Positions 22,447 through 36,543 of a stretch of 64,000 nucleotides of DNA are shown here, piece after piece; position 1 is the stretch's first letter; each line of letters starts with the position of its first letter. Source of the stretch: Escherichia phage RB3; sequence record KM606994; one strand, 5' to 3'. The notes beneath the pieces were generated by a model. That model saw only the letters and a program-made list of their open reading frames with translations. It was not told the origin of the DNA and ran no database searches. The position numbers and the translations under genes are program-made.

Positions 22447-22500
22447 TCCTCATGTTATGTCAGTAAGTCTACTATAACACAACACGAGGGACTTGTAAAC
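22447..22500 (-). repeat. 54-bp early promoter/leader cassette, copy A
   Basis: Hand alignment: 52 of 54 nt identical to 37922-37975. Confidence 0.85.
22471..22500 (-). promoter_or_regulatory. Early-type promoter (GTTTAC -35, TATAGT -10) upstream of alt.-3
   Basis: GTTTAC-18 nt-TATAGT on minus strand; part of a 54-bp repeat. Confidence 0.6.
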
Positions 22501-24557
22501 TACATTTTGAACTTTTTAGACATTCCGTTGATGTTAACCAAAGAAGCTAATATTTGAGAAACTTCGTTTTCCTCTTCTTTTGATTCTTCTACAAGGAATT
22601 GATTAAATCCAGCCATTGGACGAACTTCACCAGTTTCCATTAAATGGTCTCCATCATATACTGATTCTTCTAATTGTTCAGAAGGAGGAACGATTGTACC
22701 TTCGATTAGATACTTGTTATAAGCAGTTTCTTTCATAAAGTACGTACTTACTTTATTAATCTTCAGTAAAATTCCGCGCGGTAGAATAACTTCAGCTTCT
22801 GATGGAAATCCTGATAAATGACCTGGAACGATAACTTTGATTCGCTCAGCTCCTTTAATTACCATACCCACGCTAGTTTCAGCATCTTCATTAGCATATG
22901 TAGAATGACTACCCATATGCATCAAATCTTCTGCATCAACGGAACCTTCTCCTTCACCAGAAAATACTGCGCCGGAATCATCTAGAGCCATATAGTTTTT
23001 ACCATGCTCACCGAAGATATTTGGTTTAAGCGATGTGGATACGAAGTTCTTGAAATAGAACATTTTGTTTTCAATGTTATGACGCAAAGTTTTAAAGGTA
23101 ACTTCTTGTCCACGATAAAGCGTAGTTCCTGGAGGAAGAACTGAACCTTTAGCGAATGCAGAATCAAGCGTCTCAATATGTTTAATAGCTCGTTCCATAT
23201 ATTCTTCACGGGTAGAATCTGGTTTACCCAAAAGGAACGAGTTCATTTCAACATATGAATCTGCACAATAATCTTCAATTACATCAGATTCAGCTTGAGT
23301 TAATCCTTTTGGAGTTACTTCGGTGCTTGCGTATTCATATGCCTGGGCAGCAGATTCATTAATCAATTTATAAATGCCATTCATGACAAATTGAATAATA
23401 GCTGTCTTTTCATCTGGCGTAGCTTTAGAACCTTTAACTAAATCATTAATAATTTTCTTAATAACATCAAAGCTATTAGAAATATTAATGTCAGCAAGAT
23501 CGCTTAAAATTTTATCAGTTTTATAATCAAAGAATTCTTTATTCTTTAAATATTCTTGAGAACCTTGATACGATATATCGCTCTGCAACTTGATAGATGG
23601 ATCACGTAAACGTGCATGGGCTAATGCAATATGATTTCGGAAACTTTCTAGTTCATAATCGTTAGATTTAAAACGAGAAGCACTTCTCATACCACCGATA
23701 GCTCCTTTGCCGAAGTTTGAACCAATCTGAATAACGCCAGAGTTCATTGGTCCTTCTGCTTTATATACCGGAACTTTAGATTCAAACTCTTGATATTTCT
23801 TGGCAGCGAAGCTATCACCCTGAAGTGAAGCATCGACAGTAGAATATTGAGCTTGTGCTGCTAATCGACGACTAATTTTAGTTTTTTGAATAACAGCTTG
23901 ATCCGTGCGCTTATCATTTTCTAAAGCAATAGAAGCAGCAACAGCGACAGCTTTAGGAACAGCATTACCTGTTTTAACATCTACATAAACATCACCGACC
24001 TTTGATTCAACTTTTGTGAATAACTCAGTTGAAATAGGAGGTACACCTGGAATGTCTTCTAAATTGGCATTTTTACGGTAAACCATAATATATGCATACT
24101 TTTTATCATAGTCCCAGATTTCCTTTAAAAGAACATATCGACCTGCTCCTTTAGTACGTACTAAACGGTCAGCAATAACTTGCATTTGACGAGCAGCGCC
24201 ATTTGTTTTACTTTTTAGTACGCGGAATAGGCATGCGTCAATTTTATACTGTTTCATTGTTTGAAGAGCAGTATCAAAAACAGCATTAATGACGCCAATT
24301 GGATTTCCACCCAAGTTTCTAAGCTTAACCAGCGATAATTTCTCGTTGACACCTATCATTACGATATGCATCATTTTATCGCCTGGCTTAACGTTTTTAT
24401 TCGTATCACCACCAGAGGTGTATGTACAAAATCTAAATCCAGGAAGCACGCTTTCTTCGCCGGCTTGAATAGCAAAAATTTGTGGTATTTTATGCTTAGG
24501 ATTTAAGTTAACAACCGGCGCCGAAGCGCCGTCAAATAATTCTGTAATAAGTTCCAT
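22500..24557 (-). CDS. Alt-like ADP-ribosyltransferase paralogue (downstream copy)
   Basis: 685 aa; N-terminus MELITELFD... close to the upstream copy; R-S-E ART motifs (LYRGQ, FVSTSL, EAEVILPRG); start 3 nt after the upstream copy's stop. Confidence 0.8.
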   Translation of the reverse strand: MELITELFDGASAPVVNLNPKHKIPQIFAIQAGEESVLPGFRFCTYTSGGDTNKNVKPGDKMMHIVMIGVNEKLSLVKLRNLGGNPIGVINAVFDTALQTMKQYKIDACLFRVLKSKTNGAARQMQVIADRLVRTKGAGRYVLLKEIWDYDKKYAYIMVYRKNANLEDIPGVPPISTELFTKVESKVGDVYVDVKTGNAVPKAVAVAASIALENDKRTDQAVIQKTKISRRLAAQAQYSTVDASLQGDSFAAKKYQEFESKVPVYKAEGPMNSGVIQIGSNFGKGAIGGMRSASRFKSNDYELESFRNHIALAHARLRDPSIKLQSDISYQGSQEYLKNKEFFDYKTDKILSDLADINISNSFDVIKKIINDLVKGSKATPDEKTAIIQFVMNGIYKLINESAAQAYEYASTEVTPKGLTQAESDVIEDYCADSYVEMNSFLLGKPDSTREEYMERAIKHIETLDSAFAKGSVLPPGTTLYRGQEVTFKTLRHNIENKMFYFKNFVSTSLKPNIFGEHGKNYMALDDSGAVFSGEGEGSVDAEDLMHMGSHSTYANEDAETSVGMVIKGAERIKVIVPGHLSGFPSEAEVILPRGILLKINKVSTYFMKETAYNKYLIEGTIVPPSEQLEESVYDGDHLMETGEVRPMAGFNQFLVEESKEEENEVSQILASLVNINGMSKKFKM

Positions 24558-24560
24558 GAT

Positions 24561-26654
24561 TTATCCTTGAACGAACTTGTAAGGCATGTTTGTAATATCT
24601 ATGCAAGACGCAATAATTCCAAGAGATGATTCTGCTTTCTGTTTAACGTTTGATGAAACAAATGATGCAAAGTCAACTCTGTCTTCTATTTCAATATCAC
24701 CTGTCATTGCAACTACTTCACCGGTTTCCATTAAATGGTCTCCGTCATAGATTACCGATTCGGTGAGTTCTTCGGTGGTCATAACTTCAGCTTGAATGAG
24801 TTTTGTATTATTAGATGTTGTTCCGTCATTATTAGAAGCATCAGTTATTTTATTAACTTTGACCATCAATCCACGCGGTAGAATAACTTCAGCTTCTGTT
24901 GCTATTCCGAGACTTCCTGGATATACAACATTAACTTTATGAGCTCCATCAATTGCCCATCCTATTTGAACTTTAACGTATTCAGGATTTTCTTTATACG
25001 CTCTTATTTCGTTTGGATTAATAGTTATTCCTTCTTCATTTTTATCAACTGTTAATTCATTGCGAGCTTCTGGTTCTAAAAGACCAATACCAGCATGTGT
25101 AATTCCAAAACGTCCAAAAATGATAGGAGTTAAAGAAGTAGATACAAAATTTCTGAAATAGAACACTTTATTTTTAACTAGTGCTTCGTATATAGGAGCA
25201 GTCATACTTTGAGCACGATAAACTGTAATGCCTTCTGGTATACGGTCACCATTTTCAAAAGCTGAATCTAAATTATTTATCGCAGATTCAATTTCTTTTT
25301 CACTCATTACATCATATCGTTCTGGATTGTAGCGGCCTAAAAGAAGATTATTGATGTCAGTATATCCTGATCCACAATACTCTCTAATACCGCGCTTTTG
25401 CGATGGAGTATATTTAGAACCATCACGGGCAATAGTAATATCAATCATTGGACCTGCACCAATTCCAGAAAAACTATAAATCATTCGTTTGAGGAATTTA
25501 GTTTTTGCTGAGTTCCAAGAATTTTTAGTTATTTCTTCCCAGACTTCATCTGGCTGCCCTTTACGAGTTTTATTATGTTTATCAAGCCAATTATCTTTAT
25601 ATTCTTCAAAGAATTGATTAACAGCTGCTGCGTATTTCTCTAAACATTTTATTGAAGTAGTTGGTTCATTTTTAATCGCATTAAGAATTACATCTTTAAT
25701 TTTTTCAGAAACTTCATTAACCTCACTTTTTGAAAAGAATTTATAGTCATAGTGAAGTTCATCTGCGGTTCCTTCGGCAATGATTTTTGCTGCCTTAGTT
25801 TTAGAAGCTAATGAATTAATTCCAAGCTTCATTTCTTCTGCTTCGGGAATTAAAGGAGCAGTAGCAGGTTTATTGAAATTAGCTGCGGTAGATTCATACT
25901 TCTGGAATAATTCACTTTCAAATCTAGAAGACTCTAACGATTGACTTTGTGCAATTGCTCTACGTGAAATTTTAACTTTAACGATTACAGCTTGGTCAGA
26001 ACGTTTATCATTTTCTTGCGCAATAGATGCTGCAATTGCCTCATTTTTAGTTACTTGGGCTCCAGTATCTTTATTGATATAAACATCACCGACCTTCGAT
26101 TCAACTTTAGTAAAGAGCTCAGTACTAATTTCCGGAACTCCCGGAATGTCTTCTAGTGATACATTTTTGCGATGTATAAGAATATATGCATACTTTTTAT
26201 CGTAATCCCAGAGTTCCTTAAGAAGGACGTATCTGCCACCTGAACGACTGCGGATGAGTCTATCAGCAATAAGTTGAATTTGTCGAGCTTGACCGGCGGT
26301 TTTAGACTTAAGAATACGAAGCATGCAGGCATCAATTTTATACTGACGCATTGTTTGCATTGCAACAGTAAAAACCGAATTGATATAATTAATTGGGCTT
26401 GGACCAAGACCTTTCAATTTAGCAATTGAACCTTTAGCGGTTAATGTAAAAGGAACAATATGCATCATTTTATCGCCCATTTTTAAATCGCGATTAGTAT
26501 CACCTCCAGATGTATAGGTACATAAACGAAAGCCTGGTTGTTCAATTGCATCATCAACATGAACTGAAAAAATTTGCGGTATTTTCTTCTTTGGATTTAA
26601 GTTTGTAATCGGAAGAGTAGTATCTTCGTCAAATAATTCTGTAATAAGTTCCAT
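24561..26654 (-). CDS. alt: Alt ADP-ribosyltransferase (head-packaged, injected)
   Basis: 697 aa from second Met; R-S-E motifs (VYRAQ, FVSTSL, EAEVILPRG); late promoter upstream; adjacent to alt.1 and gene 30. Confidence 0.85.
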   Translation of the reverse strand: MELITELFDEDTTLPITNLNPKKKIPQIFSVHVDDAIEQPGFRLCTYTSGGDTNRDLKMGDKMMHIVPFTLTAKGSIAKLKGLGPSPINYINSVFTVAMQTMRQYKIDACMLRILKSKTAGQARQIQLIADRLIRSRSGGRYVLLKELWDYDKKYAYILIHRKNVSLEDIPGVPEISTELFTKVESKVGDVYINKDTGAQVTKNEAIAASIAQENDKRSDQAVIVKVKISRRAIAQSQSLESSRFESELFQKYESTAANFNKPATAPLIPEAEEMKLGINSLASKTKAAKIIAEGTADELHYDYKFFSKSEVNEVSEKIKDVILNAIKNEPTTSIKCLEKYAAAVNQFFEEYKDNWLDKHNKTRKGQPDEVWEEITKNSWNSAKTKFLKRMIYSFSGIGAGPMIDITIARDGSKYTPSQKRGIREYCGSGYTDINNLLLGRYNPERYDVMSEKEIESAINNLDSAFENGDRIPEGITVYRAQSMTAPIYEALVKNKVFYFRNFVSTSLTPIIFGRFGITHAGIGLLEPEARNELTVDKNEEGITINPNEIRAYKENPEYVKVQIGWAIDGAHKVNVVYPGSLGIATEAEVILPRGLMVKVNKITDASNNDGTTSNNTKLIQAEVMTTEELTESVIYDGDHLMETGEVVAMTGDIEIEDRVDFASFVSSNVKQKAESSLGIIASCIDITNMPYKFVQG

Positions 26655-26677
26655 CATAGCCTCTCTAGTGTTTATTC

Positions 26678-26685: not shown

Positions 26686-26706
26686 AAATTAAAGGCCCGA
26701 AGGCCT
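26685..26706 (-). terminator. Terminator/hairpin after alt.1
   Basis: Minus strand AGGCC-UUCG-GGCCU directly after stop, then U-rich. Confidence 0.6.
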
Positions 26707-26895
26707 TTAGTAATCTAGTGGTAAGAGAGTACGATATATTTCAAACTTCGGTCCTTTTTCATAGGCATCAAATGTTTCTGTAAATTTGTTATAAGCGTAT
26801 GCATCTACAAATTCGAGAATGACTTGTGATACAGAAGTAGAAACATCTCCACCTTCTTTTTGAGCAATGACAATTGTTTCTAAGTAAGCTTTCAT
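26707..26895 (-). CDS. Hypothetical small protein (alt.1 position)
   Basis: 62-aa ORF between gene 30 and alt; followed by UUCG hairpin. Confidence 0.5.
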   Translation of the reverse strand: MKAYLETIVIAQKEGGDVSTSVSQVILEFVDAYAYNKFTETFDAYEKGPKFEIYRTLLPLDY

Positions 26896-28355
26896 AGACC
26901 AGTTACCTCATGAAAATCACCAAATACATCCTCGAATGTATTAGCTTTAGTTTTATCTTCACGTAAACGAATCGCAATCGGAAGAAATAATTTAACGTAA
27001 TCAGTGCGGCCATCAGATTTTAACCAACCGTTGCATTCGCACTCTAGAATTTTTCCAATATAATAATTTTGGTTTTCCATAATGCGAGTACGGTCAAGTT
27101 CATGCGATTTTACACCGGCTTTATCTTTTAAGCCTGAACCAGCATTTACTTTAATTTTTCCACACTCTGACTCAAGAATAAATCCACCTGCTTTAGTAGG
27201 GTCTTTACGGTGAGGATAAATTCCTACAATTTTTAAATCAACATCAATTACTTCTTTAAATTTATAGAGATTTTTTGAACGAGCATTTTCCCATAATCCA
27301 TCGATATTTTTGAGAATAATACCTTCAAGACCTTGGTCAATATACTTTTTATAAATTACCTTAGCTTCATCTAAGTTATTTACTACTTGGTTTTCAATTA
27401 AAATTACTTTATCATATCCTGATGTCATTTGTTCTAGTTTAGAAAAACGTACATCATATTTCAAACGAAATGCAGGAAGACCGTATATTTCTACCAACGG
27501 TACATAATCCCAGACCTGAAACTTCATGCACTGTGCTTCTTTTTCAGAAATGGTTCCCTTTAAAGATTTATTGGCGATGCCATTAGATGCAGTACGTGAT
27601 TCAGCTACTTCGGCGAATTCTTTAGCTTTACTAATTTCAGGATAAGCATCAAAAAGAAAATCTAGGCCTTCTGGCTCCTTTTTAACTTGCTCATGGTATA
27701 CCAATTCGCCATCAATTAACACACCTTCTGGATGAATCTGGCGGGCTTCAGCGGTCATTTTGATTAACTCTTCCTTAAGAAGATCTAATCCTAGATATTC
27801 ATTACCAGCTCGTGATAAAAGACGAACATCATCTAATTCATCACCTCTAACTTCAGCAAAACACCGAGCTCCATCAGCTTTTAACTGGGCAAAAGCTGGA
27901 AATTTGATATTCTTATTAATGCCTTTTTCATCATAAGAACTTGCAAGCATTTGAGGTTGTTCAGGAATTAAACCTGGCCAAACTTTGTTTGCAATAGATA
28001 CCGAAGCACCGCATTCAAGGTCTCGCATCATCACCCGACGCAAAACTTCAACATCATCTTTTTTACCGTCAGTAATATATCCAGTTAATTCCTCAATTGC
28101 CGCATTTCCAGTCAATTTCCGAGTAGCTAACGTGAATTCAATGAAGTCAAGCATATCGGTAAGAGTCAACATTCCAAAACTCTGGGTAGCAATACCAGGT
28201 TTAGGCCATTTCTTGATATAATACTGTAACCCACGAGAATAAGTCAGACGATATACCCGTTTAAGCAATTCATTATCTTTATTCTTTTCAAGAATTGCTT
28301 GCTTCTGCTTAGTTGAACCAATAGATGCTATTTCGTTCAGAATTTTAAGAATCAT
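26892..28355 (-). CDS. 30: ATP-dependent DNA ligase gp30
   Basis: 487 aa; ligase motif I KADGAR. Confidence 0.93.
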   Translation of the reverse strand: MILKILNEIASIGSTKQKQAILEKNKDNELLKRVYRLTYSRGLQYYIKKWPKPGIATQSFGMLTLTDMLDFIEFTLATRKLTGNAAIEELTGYITDGKKDDVEVLRRVMMRDLECGASVSIANKVWPGLIPEQPQMLASSYDEKGINKNIKFPAFAQLKADGARCFAEVRGDELDDVRLLSRAGNEYLGLDLLKEELIKMTAEARQIHPEGVLIDGELVYHEQVKKEPEGLDFLFDAYPEISKAKEFAEVAESRTASNGIANKSLKGTISEKEAQCMKFQVWDYVPLVEIYGLPAFRLKYDVRFSKLEQMTSGYDKVILIENQVVNNLDEAKVIYKKYIDQGLEGIILKNIDGLWENARSKNLYKFKEVIDVDLKIVGIYPHRKDPTKAGGFILESECGKIKVNAGSGLKDKAGVKSHELDRTRIMENQNYYIGKILECECNGWLKSDGRTDYVKLFLPIAIRLREDKTKANTFEDVFGDFHEVTGL

Positions 28356-28621
28356 TGTTCATCCTTTAGAGTTTGGTTTACAGCTCTATTATAAATCAAT
28401 TCATCATTAAGCTCAGTCAAAGACCTGTGGTACGTGGTTCTAACTTTATTTCCTTGCATCCAGTGCTTGACGTAAATGAAACCTTGCTCTACACATTTTT
28501 TAAAAATTCGTTCGTCTTTTTGAGCTCGGAATTCTGGATTGCATCTAAAAAATTGATTTACGTGACCGTAATCACGTGTAGTATTACCTTCATTTTCATA
28601 AATAGTATGAACAACAAACAT
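28352..28621 (-). CDS. Hypothetical protein (30.1 position)
   Basis: 89-aa ORF, synteny. Confidence 0.5.
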   Translation of the reverse strand: MFVVHTIYENEGNTTRDYGHVNQFFRCNPEFRAQKDERIFKKCVEQGFIYVKHWMQGNKVRTTYHRSLTELNDELIYNRAVNQTLKDEQ

Positions 28622-29460
28622 TAGAATGCTCCTTGGAAAATATTATCACCACTAGTAGGTCTATTATACAAATACCCTATGCCGCCAGGTTTAATATAGT
28701 TCCATGTCTGAAACGGATGTGTCTGATATGGATGATATAGATGATTATAAGGATTAAACCCAGGAGTTCTCCAGGTAGTGTTCCAAGGAAAAGAATCGTT
28801 TTTGATCATCTTCTCAATTACATCTTTTATAACTTTTTCACTATCAAAACTTTCTTTATTTTCCTTCGATGGAAAAAGCTTATTCTCTACATCATTCCAT
28901 GTATAAACTCGCTGTGCAGTTTTTGGAATACTGTCACGCTCCCCTCGAACCATCCAATAAACAGGAACATTTAATATTTCACTCGCGTGATCGCAATGGT
29001 GAGCGAGATCGTCAATATAACAAATTACGTTATATTTCTCTTTTGCCTTTTTGAACAACTCTTCTTTTGAAGAATCATGACTACACATCAGTACTTCTGA
29101 GAAGGCACCAGGAAAAAGAGCATTCAAATTAAATTGACGATTCAGCAGAGCGTCAATAGAATCACCCAATGCTGTAACAGCTACAAAATTATAATCTTCT
29201 TTTAATTTGTTAATTACACACAGGGCATCTTTATATGGAGACAAGTAACGAATAAAATCTGAACGATTGTATTTTTCAATTAACTTGACGCCAAGTTCTT
29301 CATCACAATTAAAGAGTTTACCAGGAGAAATAAATTTCTCATCTTGGATCATTTTTAAAATATGTTCTAACGGAAGATTATATTTCTGAGCAAAATAAGG
29401 AAGGCCTGATTGCCAGCTTAAACATACTCCATCAATATCAGTTAAAATAGTAGGCTTCAT
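28621..29460 (-). CDS. HAD-superfamily hydrolase-like protein (30.2 position)
   Basis: 279 aa; N-terminal HAD motif I (ILTDIDGV). Confidence 0.6.
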   Translation of the reverse strand: MKPTILTDIDGVCLSWQSGLPYFAQKYNLPLEHILKMIQDEKFISPGKLFNCDEELGVKLIEKYNRSDFIRYLSPYKDALCVINKLKEDYNFVAVTALGDSIDALLNRQFNLNALFPGAFSEVLMCSHDSSKEELFKKAKEKYNVICYIDDLAHHCDHASEILNVPVYWMVRGERDSIPKTAQRVYTWNDVENKLFPSKENKESFDSEKVIKDVIEKMIKNDSFPWNTTWRTPGFNPYNHLYHPYQTHPFQTWNYIKPGGIGYLYNRPTSGDNIFQGAF

Positions 29461-29921
29461 AGAGAGTCTCTTAATAGGTTTAACACATCAATAAATTCAG
29501 CTTCAGTTAGTATTGTATCATCTTTTGTTAGACCACTAGCCATGCTGTGCTTCAAAACTTTTCCTTTCGAGGCTTGTAATGCATCACGAAAGCCCTTGTT
29601 TTGGATCGCTGCTTCAAAATATGCATTTGTATACAGCTCTTTCCACGCCGGGGAGTATCTTGAAAACGGAACTCCAATCCAGAAGAGGGTCCCACGGTCC
29701 TGAGCTCTAGCATAAGACCTTCCAGCTTGTTGGGCGGCAAGCCCGGATAACCCAAATATACGACGTTGTTGTTCAACATTTTTCACCTTGCATCCTTGGA
29801 GGAATCCTTCAAGACCTCCAAATTGAATACCATCCATAACGAAAGGCCATTGGGCGAAATTACTTAATGCACATGATGGCCACCTAAAATTGTTTCTAAT
29901 CTCTAACTCAGACATTTTCAA
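29457..29921 (-). CDS. NADAR (YbiA/DUF1768)-family protein (30.3 position)
   Basis: 154 aa; WPSCALSNFAQWPFVMDG...F pattern parallels E. coli YbiA FSNFAAWPIKVDG. Confidence 0.65.
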   Translation of the reverse strand: MKMSELEIRNNFRWPSCALSNFAQWPFVMDGIQFGGLEGFLQGCKVKNVEQQRRIFGLSGLAAQQAGRSYARAQDRGTLFWIGVPFSRYSPAWKELYTNAYFEAAIQNKGFRDALQASKGKVLKHSMASGLTKDDTILTEAEFIDVLNLLRDSL

Positions 29922-30114
29922 TGCTTATAATTTCAACATCAGCCCAATGACCATAGCAAGGAAGACGAAATTCAACTGGCCAGTTAGGGTCCTTTTCTAA
30001 TATAATAGACTTAACTTGTGGTTCTTCATGTTCATCAGTATATGGATTTTTATCTGTTACTTTATATGTGACCTTAATGTACTGAATTCCAAAAATCTTA
30101 TTAATTATATTCAT
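29908..30114 (-). CDS. Hypothetical small protein
   Basis: 68-aa ORF in 30.x operon. Confidence 0.45.
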   Translation of the reverse strand: MNIINKIFGIQYIKVTYKVTDKNPYTDEHEEPQVKSIILEKDPNWPVEFRLPCYGHWADVEIISIENV

Positions 30115-30308
30115 ACTAGTTCCTTTAATCCGTAAATAGGAGATAATTCATCACCCATACGAAGGTCTTCATTTCCATCTACCCAGGAAACAATATAAGC
30201 CTCTTTTATTTGAACACCACTCCATTTAAATGGAGGTAGAACCTTAGAAATTAATCCAGGTATACCAACTCCCTTTAATTCAACAGTTTGACCTAAAAAG
30301 AATTTCAT
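30111..30308 (-). CDS. Hypothetical small protein
   Basis: 65-aa ORF in 30.x operon. Confidence 0.45.
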   Translation of the reverse strand: MKFFLGQTVELKGVGIPGLISKVLPPFKWSGVQIKEAYIVSWVDGNEDLRMGDELSPIYGLKELV

Positions 30309-31458: not shown

Positions 31459-31511
31459 AACTTTATGCAATCTTTGGAAAATAAAAAAGGACTCCCGAAG
31501 GAGTCCTCAAC

Positions 31512-35339: not shown

Positions 35340-36543
<1,204 letters not shown>

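Follow-up and report, generated by a model that had tools for sequence, protein, structure and literature searches.

In a 64,000-nucleotide stretch of DNA from Escherichia phage RB3 (sequence record KM606994; hereafter the window), two overlapping minus-strand genes, 30.3 and 30.2, lie upstream of the gene for DNA ligase. Gene 30.3 encodes AdfN, a NADAR protein that protects T-even phages against the host DarTG1 system, and gene 30.2 encodes what its motifs and predicted fold mark as a genuine HAD phosphatase. We consider it highly probable that the two are adjacent but functionally independent early genes. The anti-DarT role of the NADAR gene is already known, having been published in 2024–2025 for the gene family, and in this respect the window contributes only another allele. 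What can be added concerns gp30.2, for which the annotation NT5C-like HAD phosphatase can be given with confidence; the position of its gene by the DNA ligase gene, tight and widely conserved, offers a specific hypothesis on what this T4 gene does. This is the residual lead here.

Gene 30.3 Encodes a NADAR Protein of the Phage AdfN Branch

The product of adfN (29457..29915, minus strand) is a 152-aa phage-type NADAR protein that aligns without gaps through residue 152 with T4 gp30.3, to which it is identical at 149/152 positions (98%); the three differences (N8S, I80L, and M125I) are conservative substitutions. The family model PF08010 (“Phage_30_3”) scores it over its full length at 234 bits, where the cut-off is 36 bits (E = 4.5e-70). 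An earlier reading of the window, made from the letters and predicted open reading frames (ORFs) and here called the sequence-only reading, had placed this ORF at 29457–29921. The frame is present on the minus strand, but that start is a TTG, and both the T4 annotation and the AdfN literature use the ATG at 29915. This ATG overlaps the stop codon of gene 30.4 in ‘ATGTCTGA’ and gives a product of 152 aa, versus 154 aa from the TTG at 29921. The peptide quoted as the NADAR signature, SNFAQWPFVMDG, corresponds to residues 18–29 of the 152-aa protein.

The general NADAR model PF08719 has no direct match to gp30.3; a relative, P0184, is matched by both PF08010 and PF08719. A search of PDB sequences with gp30.3 alone gave no significant match, and the family profile reached a single PDB sequence, Escherichia coli YbiA (E = 0.024), with the SNF...DG...E..FQ segment aligned. 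In an alignment of 61 homologues with identities down to 34%, the invariant positions are P13, A16–F20 (the ALSNF motif), E36–Q40, H123, and T134–T137, and K43 is nearly invariant (at least 90%). Both catalytic residues, E36 and K43, are thus present in gp30.3, together with the phage-type His at position 123, which lies next to strand 120–122 in the structural model.

That model, built with AF2, is confident (mean predicted local distance difference test score, pLDDT, 93.3; predicted template modelling score, pTM, 0.89) and has a NADAR-type alpha+beta fold, with a helical core flanked by small beta-hairpins and an intact C-terminal helix (residues 138–151). Foldseek searches with it returned only three structures at a probability of at least 0.97: YbiA (2b3w; E = 1.8e-4, TMq 0.65), PnNADAR from Phytophthora (8bau), and a DarG1-type protein from Geobacter (8bat). 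The remaining matches had probabilities of 0.08 or less. The sequence-only reading had made its assignment depend on a NADAR fold in structure-based comparison, and three solved NADARs are what the protein matches in the PDB. Sequence and model together place gp30.3 in the NADAR superfamily, in the phage gp30.3 branch (AdfN).

Phage NADARs of this type also occur in other settings. PF08010 NADARs with about 40% identity are found on jumbo-phage-like contigs of 300–424 kb, near Nudix and Thg1-like genes, and on contigs of 60–70 kb with a CHAP/PG-binding lysin, a ligase, and a T5-dNMPase-like gene (loci L008–L012). The phage branch of NADARs thus extends beyond the T4-like phages. In Aeromonas phage AS4 (PV831792.1, 31288–31737; L016), a gp30.3-type NADAR gene lies within a tRNA cluster, between tRNA-Met and tRNA-Arg. 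Within adfN of the window, a 75-aa out-of-frame ORF (29552–29779, minus strand) is open as well; its T4 counterpart is annotated as 30.3’ (“internal translation in a different reading frame”).

AdfN as an Orphan Antitoxin Against DarTG1

The function of adfN has been worked out in the T-even phages. Phage crosses mapped their resistance to DarTG1 to gene 30.3, which was renamed adfN (Johannesman, Carlson and LeRoux; bioRxiv 2024, PMC11257639; Nat Commun 2025). In that study, T4 and T2 ΔadfN mutants turned DarTG1-sensitive, making the gene necessary, and AdfN supplied in trans rescued RB69, making it sufficient on its own; RB69 itself is sensitive to DarTG1 because of a frameshift that deletes the last helix of its adfN product. 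The same authors found the variants E36A and K43A to be inactive and purified AdfN to take ADP-ribose off DarT1-modified DNA (PMC11257639). T4 AdfN did not rescue DarT1 toxicity in uninfected cells. Cihlova et al. (PMC11125620) found that T4 gp30.3 specifically de-ADP-ribosylates guanine in vitro, and described a His in place of the Glu/Asp found in other NADARs as the hallmark of phage gp30.3 proteins.

An independent transposon screen of T4 (HIDEN-SEQ) confirms the anti-DarT function. Gene 30.3 is non-essential on K-12 and is lost on DarTG1 hosts, with a log2 fold change of −7.25 (adjusted p ~0; Data S6), that is, a 150-fold drop of insertions. When DarTG1 is absent, adfN mutants have no defect, and 27/28 insertion sites are tolerated. 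The sequence-only reading had called the NADAR protein a plausible anti-DarTG factor; this was right and, if anything, understated, as the 98% identical T4 AdfN has already been proven to be one, both genetically and biochemically. Given that E36, K43, H123, and the complete C-terminal helix are kept, we infer that the allele in the window is active.

By this account, the host DarT1 toxin ADP-ribosylates phage DNA and so blocks its replication, and AdfN, a minimal, core-only NADAR, hydrolyses the N-glycosidic linkage of ADP-ribose to guanine in DNA. Catalysis involves E36 and K43, plus the phage-type His123 at the place where other NADARs have Glu or Asp. Once the adducts are removed, the phage replicates. 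The reversal of DarT-made DNA ADP-ribosylation by a phage NADAR is biologically important as an enzymatic form of counter-defence, in which AdfN acts as an “orphan antitoxin.”

The protein in the window resembles T4 AdfN in length, in the E36/K43/H123 set, and in gene position between 30.4 and 30.2, and differs at the three substituted residues; the activity assays concern the T4 and T2 proteins. With the DarG1 or BC4488-type NADAR antitoxins and YbiA (8bat, 8bau, and 2b3w) it shares the fold and the Glu/Lys catalytic pair, and hydrolysis of guanine-linked ADP-ribose is common to these proteins. In contrast to them, it is a bare core domain with no partner toxin gene and no direct PF08719 match, and the position taken by Glu in YbiA and by Asp in DarG1 is a His.

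Gene 30.2 Encodes a HAD Phosphatase

Gene 30.2 occupies 28621–29460 on the minus strand and encodes a protein of 279 aa that starts with MKPTILTDIDGV. As the sequence-only reading noted, the protein contains DIDGV, here residues 8–12. Its start codon and the stop codon of 30.3 share 4 bp (ATGA), a tight packing found in most T4 early genes. The protein matches phrog_420 (E = 7e-92), which PHROGs labels “unknown function,” and 1,438 phage records contain relatives. Since gp30.2 has this match and these relatives and gp30.3 matches PF08010, neither is a chance ORF.

No Pfam or NCBIfam model matches gp30.2 even at E ≤ 10, the HAD domain alone included, and its relatives give only sub-threshold matches to PF00702 and PF13419. 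Because no curated HAD sequence model matches, membership in the HAD superfamily rests on motifs and fold. Motif I, DxDx[TV], is D8-I-D10-G-V12 and follows strand 4–7 in the model; the +2 Asp (D10) is as in phosphatases. Among 64 relatives, D8, D10, G11, and K132 (motif III) are invariant, and T96 (motif II) and D150 and D151 (the DD of motif IV) are conserved in at least 90%. This pattern extends to 137 representatives with identities down to ~21%, among which D8, D10, and K132 are still invariant and D151 is conserved in at least 90%.

The AlphaFold model has pLDDT values above 93 over residues 1–195 (28876..29460, minus strand) and contains a Rossmann-like HAD core. Straight after motif I, residues 16–72 form a helical module, which in the model is a four-helix C1 cap. 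The earlier proposal that the 279-aa protein is HAD-like is thus right at the level of motif, profile, and fold, and the combined sequence and model features identify gp30.2 as a genuine HAD phosphatase. The annotation has some precedent: relatives are already named “HAD-like hydrolase” or “putative phosphatase” in a few GenBank records, while most T4-type records have “hypothetical protein.” A full-text literature search on the name gp30.2 found no paper. In the transposon screen, all 72 of 72 insertion sites in T4 gene 30.2 were tolerated on K-12, i.e., the gene is dispensable in the laboratory.

The rest of the protein (residues 196–279 plus stop codon; 28621..28875, minus strand) is an aromatic/Pro/Asn-rich C-terminal tail that varies between lineages and is predicted to be disordered from residue ~220 to residue 279 (pLDDT 40–55). 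In most relatives, whose median length is ~200 aa, the tail is absent or different. It ends in GIGYLYNRPT, for which IGTGIEYL.RQPT in other genera may be compared. The tail could be a docking peptide.

An exhaustive HMMER search for the gp30.2 family yielded 1,226 cluster representatives. Its larger members P0255, P0308, P0206, and P0247, considered as potential domain fusions, have no recognisable extra Pfam domain and offered no functional clue. Two ORFs located by distant NADAR genes or ligases, of 221 aa (L011) and 254 aa (L008), were considered as hidden gp30.2 relatives and rejected (hhalign probability <1%).

Likely Substrate of gp30.2

A search of PDB sequences with gp30.2 alone gave no significant match. 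The family profile reached only one PDB sequence, mouse cdN (2jao; E = 0.11), with motif I and the ...W/F-x-SGL segment aligned. The best target-normalised template modelling (TM) scores of the gp30.2 model, 0.64–0.70, are with cdN, mdN, and the Staphylococcus deoxyribonucleotidase-like protein 3bwv. The NT5C model PF06941 (gathering cut-off 24.8 bits) does not match gp30.2 itself, while distant members of the family exceed this cut-off (P0300, 36.4 bits; P0320, 32.1 bits; P0346, 32.3 bits), and 36 of the 137 scanned members match the model at E ≤ 1e-3. The NT5C-positive P0300 lies on a contig of 789 bp, and its genomic context was uninformative. As gp30.2 misses PF06941 while distant family members pass, it represents a divergent sister group of the NT5C 5’(3’)-deoxyribonucleotidases rather than a demonstrated member.

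The likeness to the NT5C family (PF06941; cdN/mdN; PBS1 Dtm) extends over the HAD core, the four-helix C1 cap, and the aligned DxDGV...SGL segment; gp30.2 has an aromatic residue, W16, at the position of a Phe in cdN, and the motifs of both indicate Mg-type phosphatases. On the other hand, gp30.2 falls below every Pfam threshold, has ~17–20% identity to the solved members, and carries a disordered tail of ~80 aa, and it is not obvious why T4 would need to break down a canonical deoxynucleoside monophosphate. A phage enzyme of the NT5C family has been characterised: PBS1 Dtm, a phosphatase of deoxythymidine monophosphate.

By analogy with other HAD enzymes, gp30.2 would be Mg2+-dependent, with D8 as the nucleophile, D10 as the general acid/base, T96 and K132 holding the phosphate, and D150/D151 holding the metal. 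The four-helix C1 cap would close over the active site, which favours a small substrate. In HAD enzymes, C1 caps accompany small substrates, whereas polynucleotide phosphatases of the Pnkp type are capless. We therefore read gp30.2 as a Mg2+-dependent phosphomonoesterase that acts on a small molecule. Because the family grades into the NT5C deoxyribonucleotidases, our leading candidate for this molecule is a nucleoside 5’- or 3’-monophosphate, a tentative choice that we rate slightly below an even chance.

Genomic Neighbourhood and Alternative Explanations

The sequence-only reading had grouped two ADP-ribosyltransferases, the DNA ligase, the HAD protein, and the NADAR protein into one neighbourhood for the processing of ADP-ribose and nucleic-acid ends. 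Pfam confirms the neighbours themselves, i.e., the ligase and both Alt-type ADP-ribosyltransferases. Their functional grouping is not borne out, at least with respect to DarTG1: AdfN alone is necessary and suffices, insertions in 30.2, 30.1, alt, and alt.1 are unaffected there, NADAR and HAD genes are often apart, and the Alt genes lie past a terminator-like hairpin. In the T4 screen on DarTG1, the log2 fold changes are −0.12 for 30.2 (p = 0.61), −0.01 for 30.1 and for alt, and +0.02 for alt.1. Only 30.3 and 30.4 (log2 fold change −1.79, adjusted p 0.014) are significant. Since 30.4 is located just upstream, with its stop codon overlapping the adfN start, its effect is likely a polar or translational-coupling effect on 30.3, although a helper role of 30.4 in the anti-DarTG1 function is still conceivable.

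To describe the conservation of the neighbourhood, we used 79 viral loci with gp30.2 relatives, dereplicated at 80% identity to 37 lineages of T4-family phages, of which 32 have full flanks; neighbours were sought by profile or sequence search of the ORFs. Of the 32 lineages, 14 have a NADAR gene no more than 6 kb from the HAD gene; in Aeromonas phage AS4, 65 kb separate the two. Gene 30.1 is present in only eight lineages. An Alt gene is found within 6 kb in 26 lineages, closer than 1 kb in none, and on the opposite strand in about ten, roughly a third. The ligase is the steadiest neighbour: 31/32 lineages have an ATP-dependent DNA ligase gene no more than 6 kb from the HAD gene, and in 29/32 the distance is at most 1 kb, with the ligase gene almost always immediately downstream and on the same strand. 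The two genes are direct neighbours in Shewanella phage Thanatos-1, Acinetobacter phage fHyAci03, and Aeromonas phage AS4, and are separated by two small ORFs in the Vibrio Schizotequatrovirus phi-Grn1; on one metagenomic contig the pair is kept with its order reversed. The pair thus spans phages of Escherichia, Acinetobacter, Aeromonas, Vibrio, and Shewanella, while NADAR, 30.1, and Alt come and go.

The arrangement of adfN and 30.2 could suggest a single pathway, in which gp30.2 disposes, for example, of the released ADP-ribose or of phosphorylated breakdown products and the pair forms an anti-DarTG module. The 4-bp overlap means that the two are probably co-translated, the NADAR gene is immediately upstream in 14 of the 14 lineages where it is near the HAD gene, and almost the same phage records carry the two genes (1,438 versus 1,509). 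The T4 screen largely refutes this proposal: on DarTG1 the change for 30.2 is negligible next to that for 30.3. AdfN alone rescues RB69 in trans. In addition, 18 of the 32 lineages have no NADAR gene within 6 kb of the HAD gene, with the 65-kb separation in AS4 as an extreme. We regard such a joint pathway as very improbable and conclude that 30.2 is not needed against DarTG1. The independence of the two genes is supported by the unaffected 30.2 insertions on DarTG1, the tolerance of all 72 sites, and the limited co-occurrence. The closeness of the NADAR gene to two Alt genes invites a further proposal, namely that the protein erases the marks set by the phage’s own enzymes (Alt and its paralogue, ModA/ModB) and thereby regulates ADP-ribosylation or RNAylation of phage origin, instead of, or besides, countering DarT; Iyer et al. 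noted NADARs as early genes alongside ADP-ribosyltransferases in T4-like phages. However, the NADARs characterised so far act on base-linked ADP-ribose (guanine and, for some, cytosine) and not on ADP-ribosylated arginine in proteins, and adfN mutants are healthy when DarTG1 is absent. Alt, moreover, keeps its distance in all lineages, often changes strand, and in the window lies past a terminator-like hairpin. This role is equally hard to credit, and we conclude that the Alt orthologue is a neighbour with no part in the anti-DarT function.

The constancy of the HAD/ligase pair raises the question of whether gp30.2 serves the ligase. As all surveyed lineages are T4-family phages, inherited gene order is the simplest explanation, and real functional coupling seems unlikely. 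One form of coupling would make gp30.2 a 3’-phosphatase that heals polynucleotide ends and so prepares nicks for the adjacent ligase, the two proteins acting as a nucleic-acid-end processing pair. Besides the adjacency itself, which holds in distant genera and in one rearranged order, this is favoured by a weak match to the PNK phosphatase phrog_415 (E = 0.003), the sole PNK phrog link. Against it stands the full four-helix C1 cap over the modelled active site, which makes gp30.2 ill suited to work on the ends of DNA, and its sequence affinity is to NT5C and not to HAD_PNKP. The phage also already encodes Pnk (PseT), with its own C-terminal HAD 3’-phosphatase domain (35340–36248, ~6 kb away), which shares DxDGT-type HAD chemistry with gp30.2 but differs in that gp30.2 is C1-capped. 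The Pnk phosphatase domain is capless and acts on polynucleotide ends. Finally, the ligase is essential and 30.2 is fully dispensable, and the adjacency could simply be the inherited T4-family order. End healing is accordingly an improbable function for gp30.2. If there is coupling, gp30.2 might act as a nucleotidase on a nucleotide that arises from, or inhibits, ligation or nick processing; alternatively, it might be a conditional counter-defence enzyme directed at a nucleotide-based immune signal outside the screens so far. More broadly, gp30.2 might dephosphorylate a small molecule other than a nucleotide, for instance a sugar phosphate, or might serve counter-defence by destroying an immune signal that is phosphorylated. 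NT5C is the only specific Pfam family reached by the relatives, and 30.2 is not a significant gene in any defence condition screened in T4; we consider this alternative doubtful, though less so than a link to the ligase, and prefer the nucleoside monophosphate as the substrate.

Gene Order and Flanking Features

The sequence identifies the window as T4-type phage DNA. Positions 28300–30200 are 100% identical with Enterobacteria phages RB5, RB6, RB7, RB9, and RB10 and 95–99% identical with ~400 further T4-type phages, and the minus-strand gene order is that of T4: alt, alt.1, 30 (ligase), 30.1, 30.2, 30.3, and 30.4, on to 31, cd, and pseT. Upstream of adfN is gene 30.4 (29908..30114, minus strand). 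Downstream of 30.2 on the same strand, gene 30.1 (28352..28621; DUF3045, PF11243, E = 2.9e-64) lies between the HAD gene and gene 30, the ATP-dependent DNA ligase (26892..28355; PF01068, E = 1.2e-32).

GC-rich hairpins with UUCG loops and T-runs, at 31487–31508 and 26690–26709 (minus strand), bracket the block from 30.7 to alt.1 and leave the Alt genes outside; the latter, terminator-like hairpin is located just after alt.1. Both come from a consensus scan in which the total number of sites is not above chance, and these two strong UUCG hairpins are used with caution. A promoter scan of the window found 25 sites versus 24 expected, which is not above chance.

Two Alt genes follow in tandem on the minus strand. 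The 698-aa copy (24561..26657; PF03496, E = 1.9e-37) is the orthologue of the T4 ADP-ribosyltransferase Alt, with 70% identity overall, and is a mosaic: residues 1–245 are nearly identical to T4, and the central and catalytic part is far more divergent. The second paralogue, of 685 aa (22500..24557; PF03496, E = 6e-20; 41% identity to T4 Alt), is intact in the window, whereas in T4 only two decayed fragments, alt.-1 and alt.-2, are left in its place.

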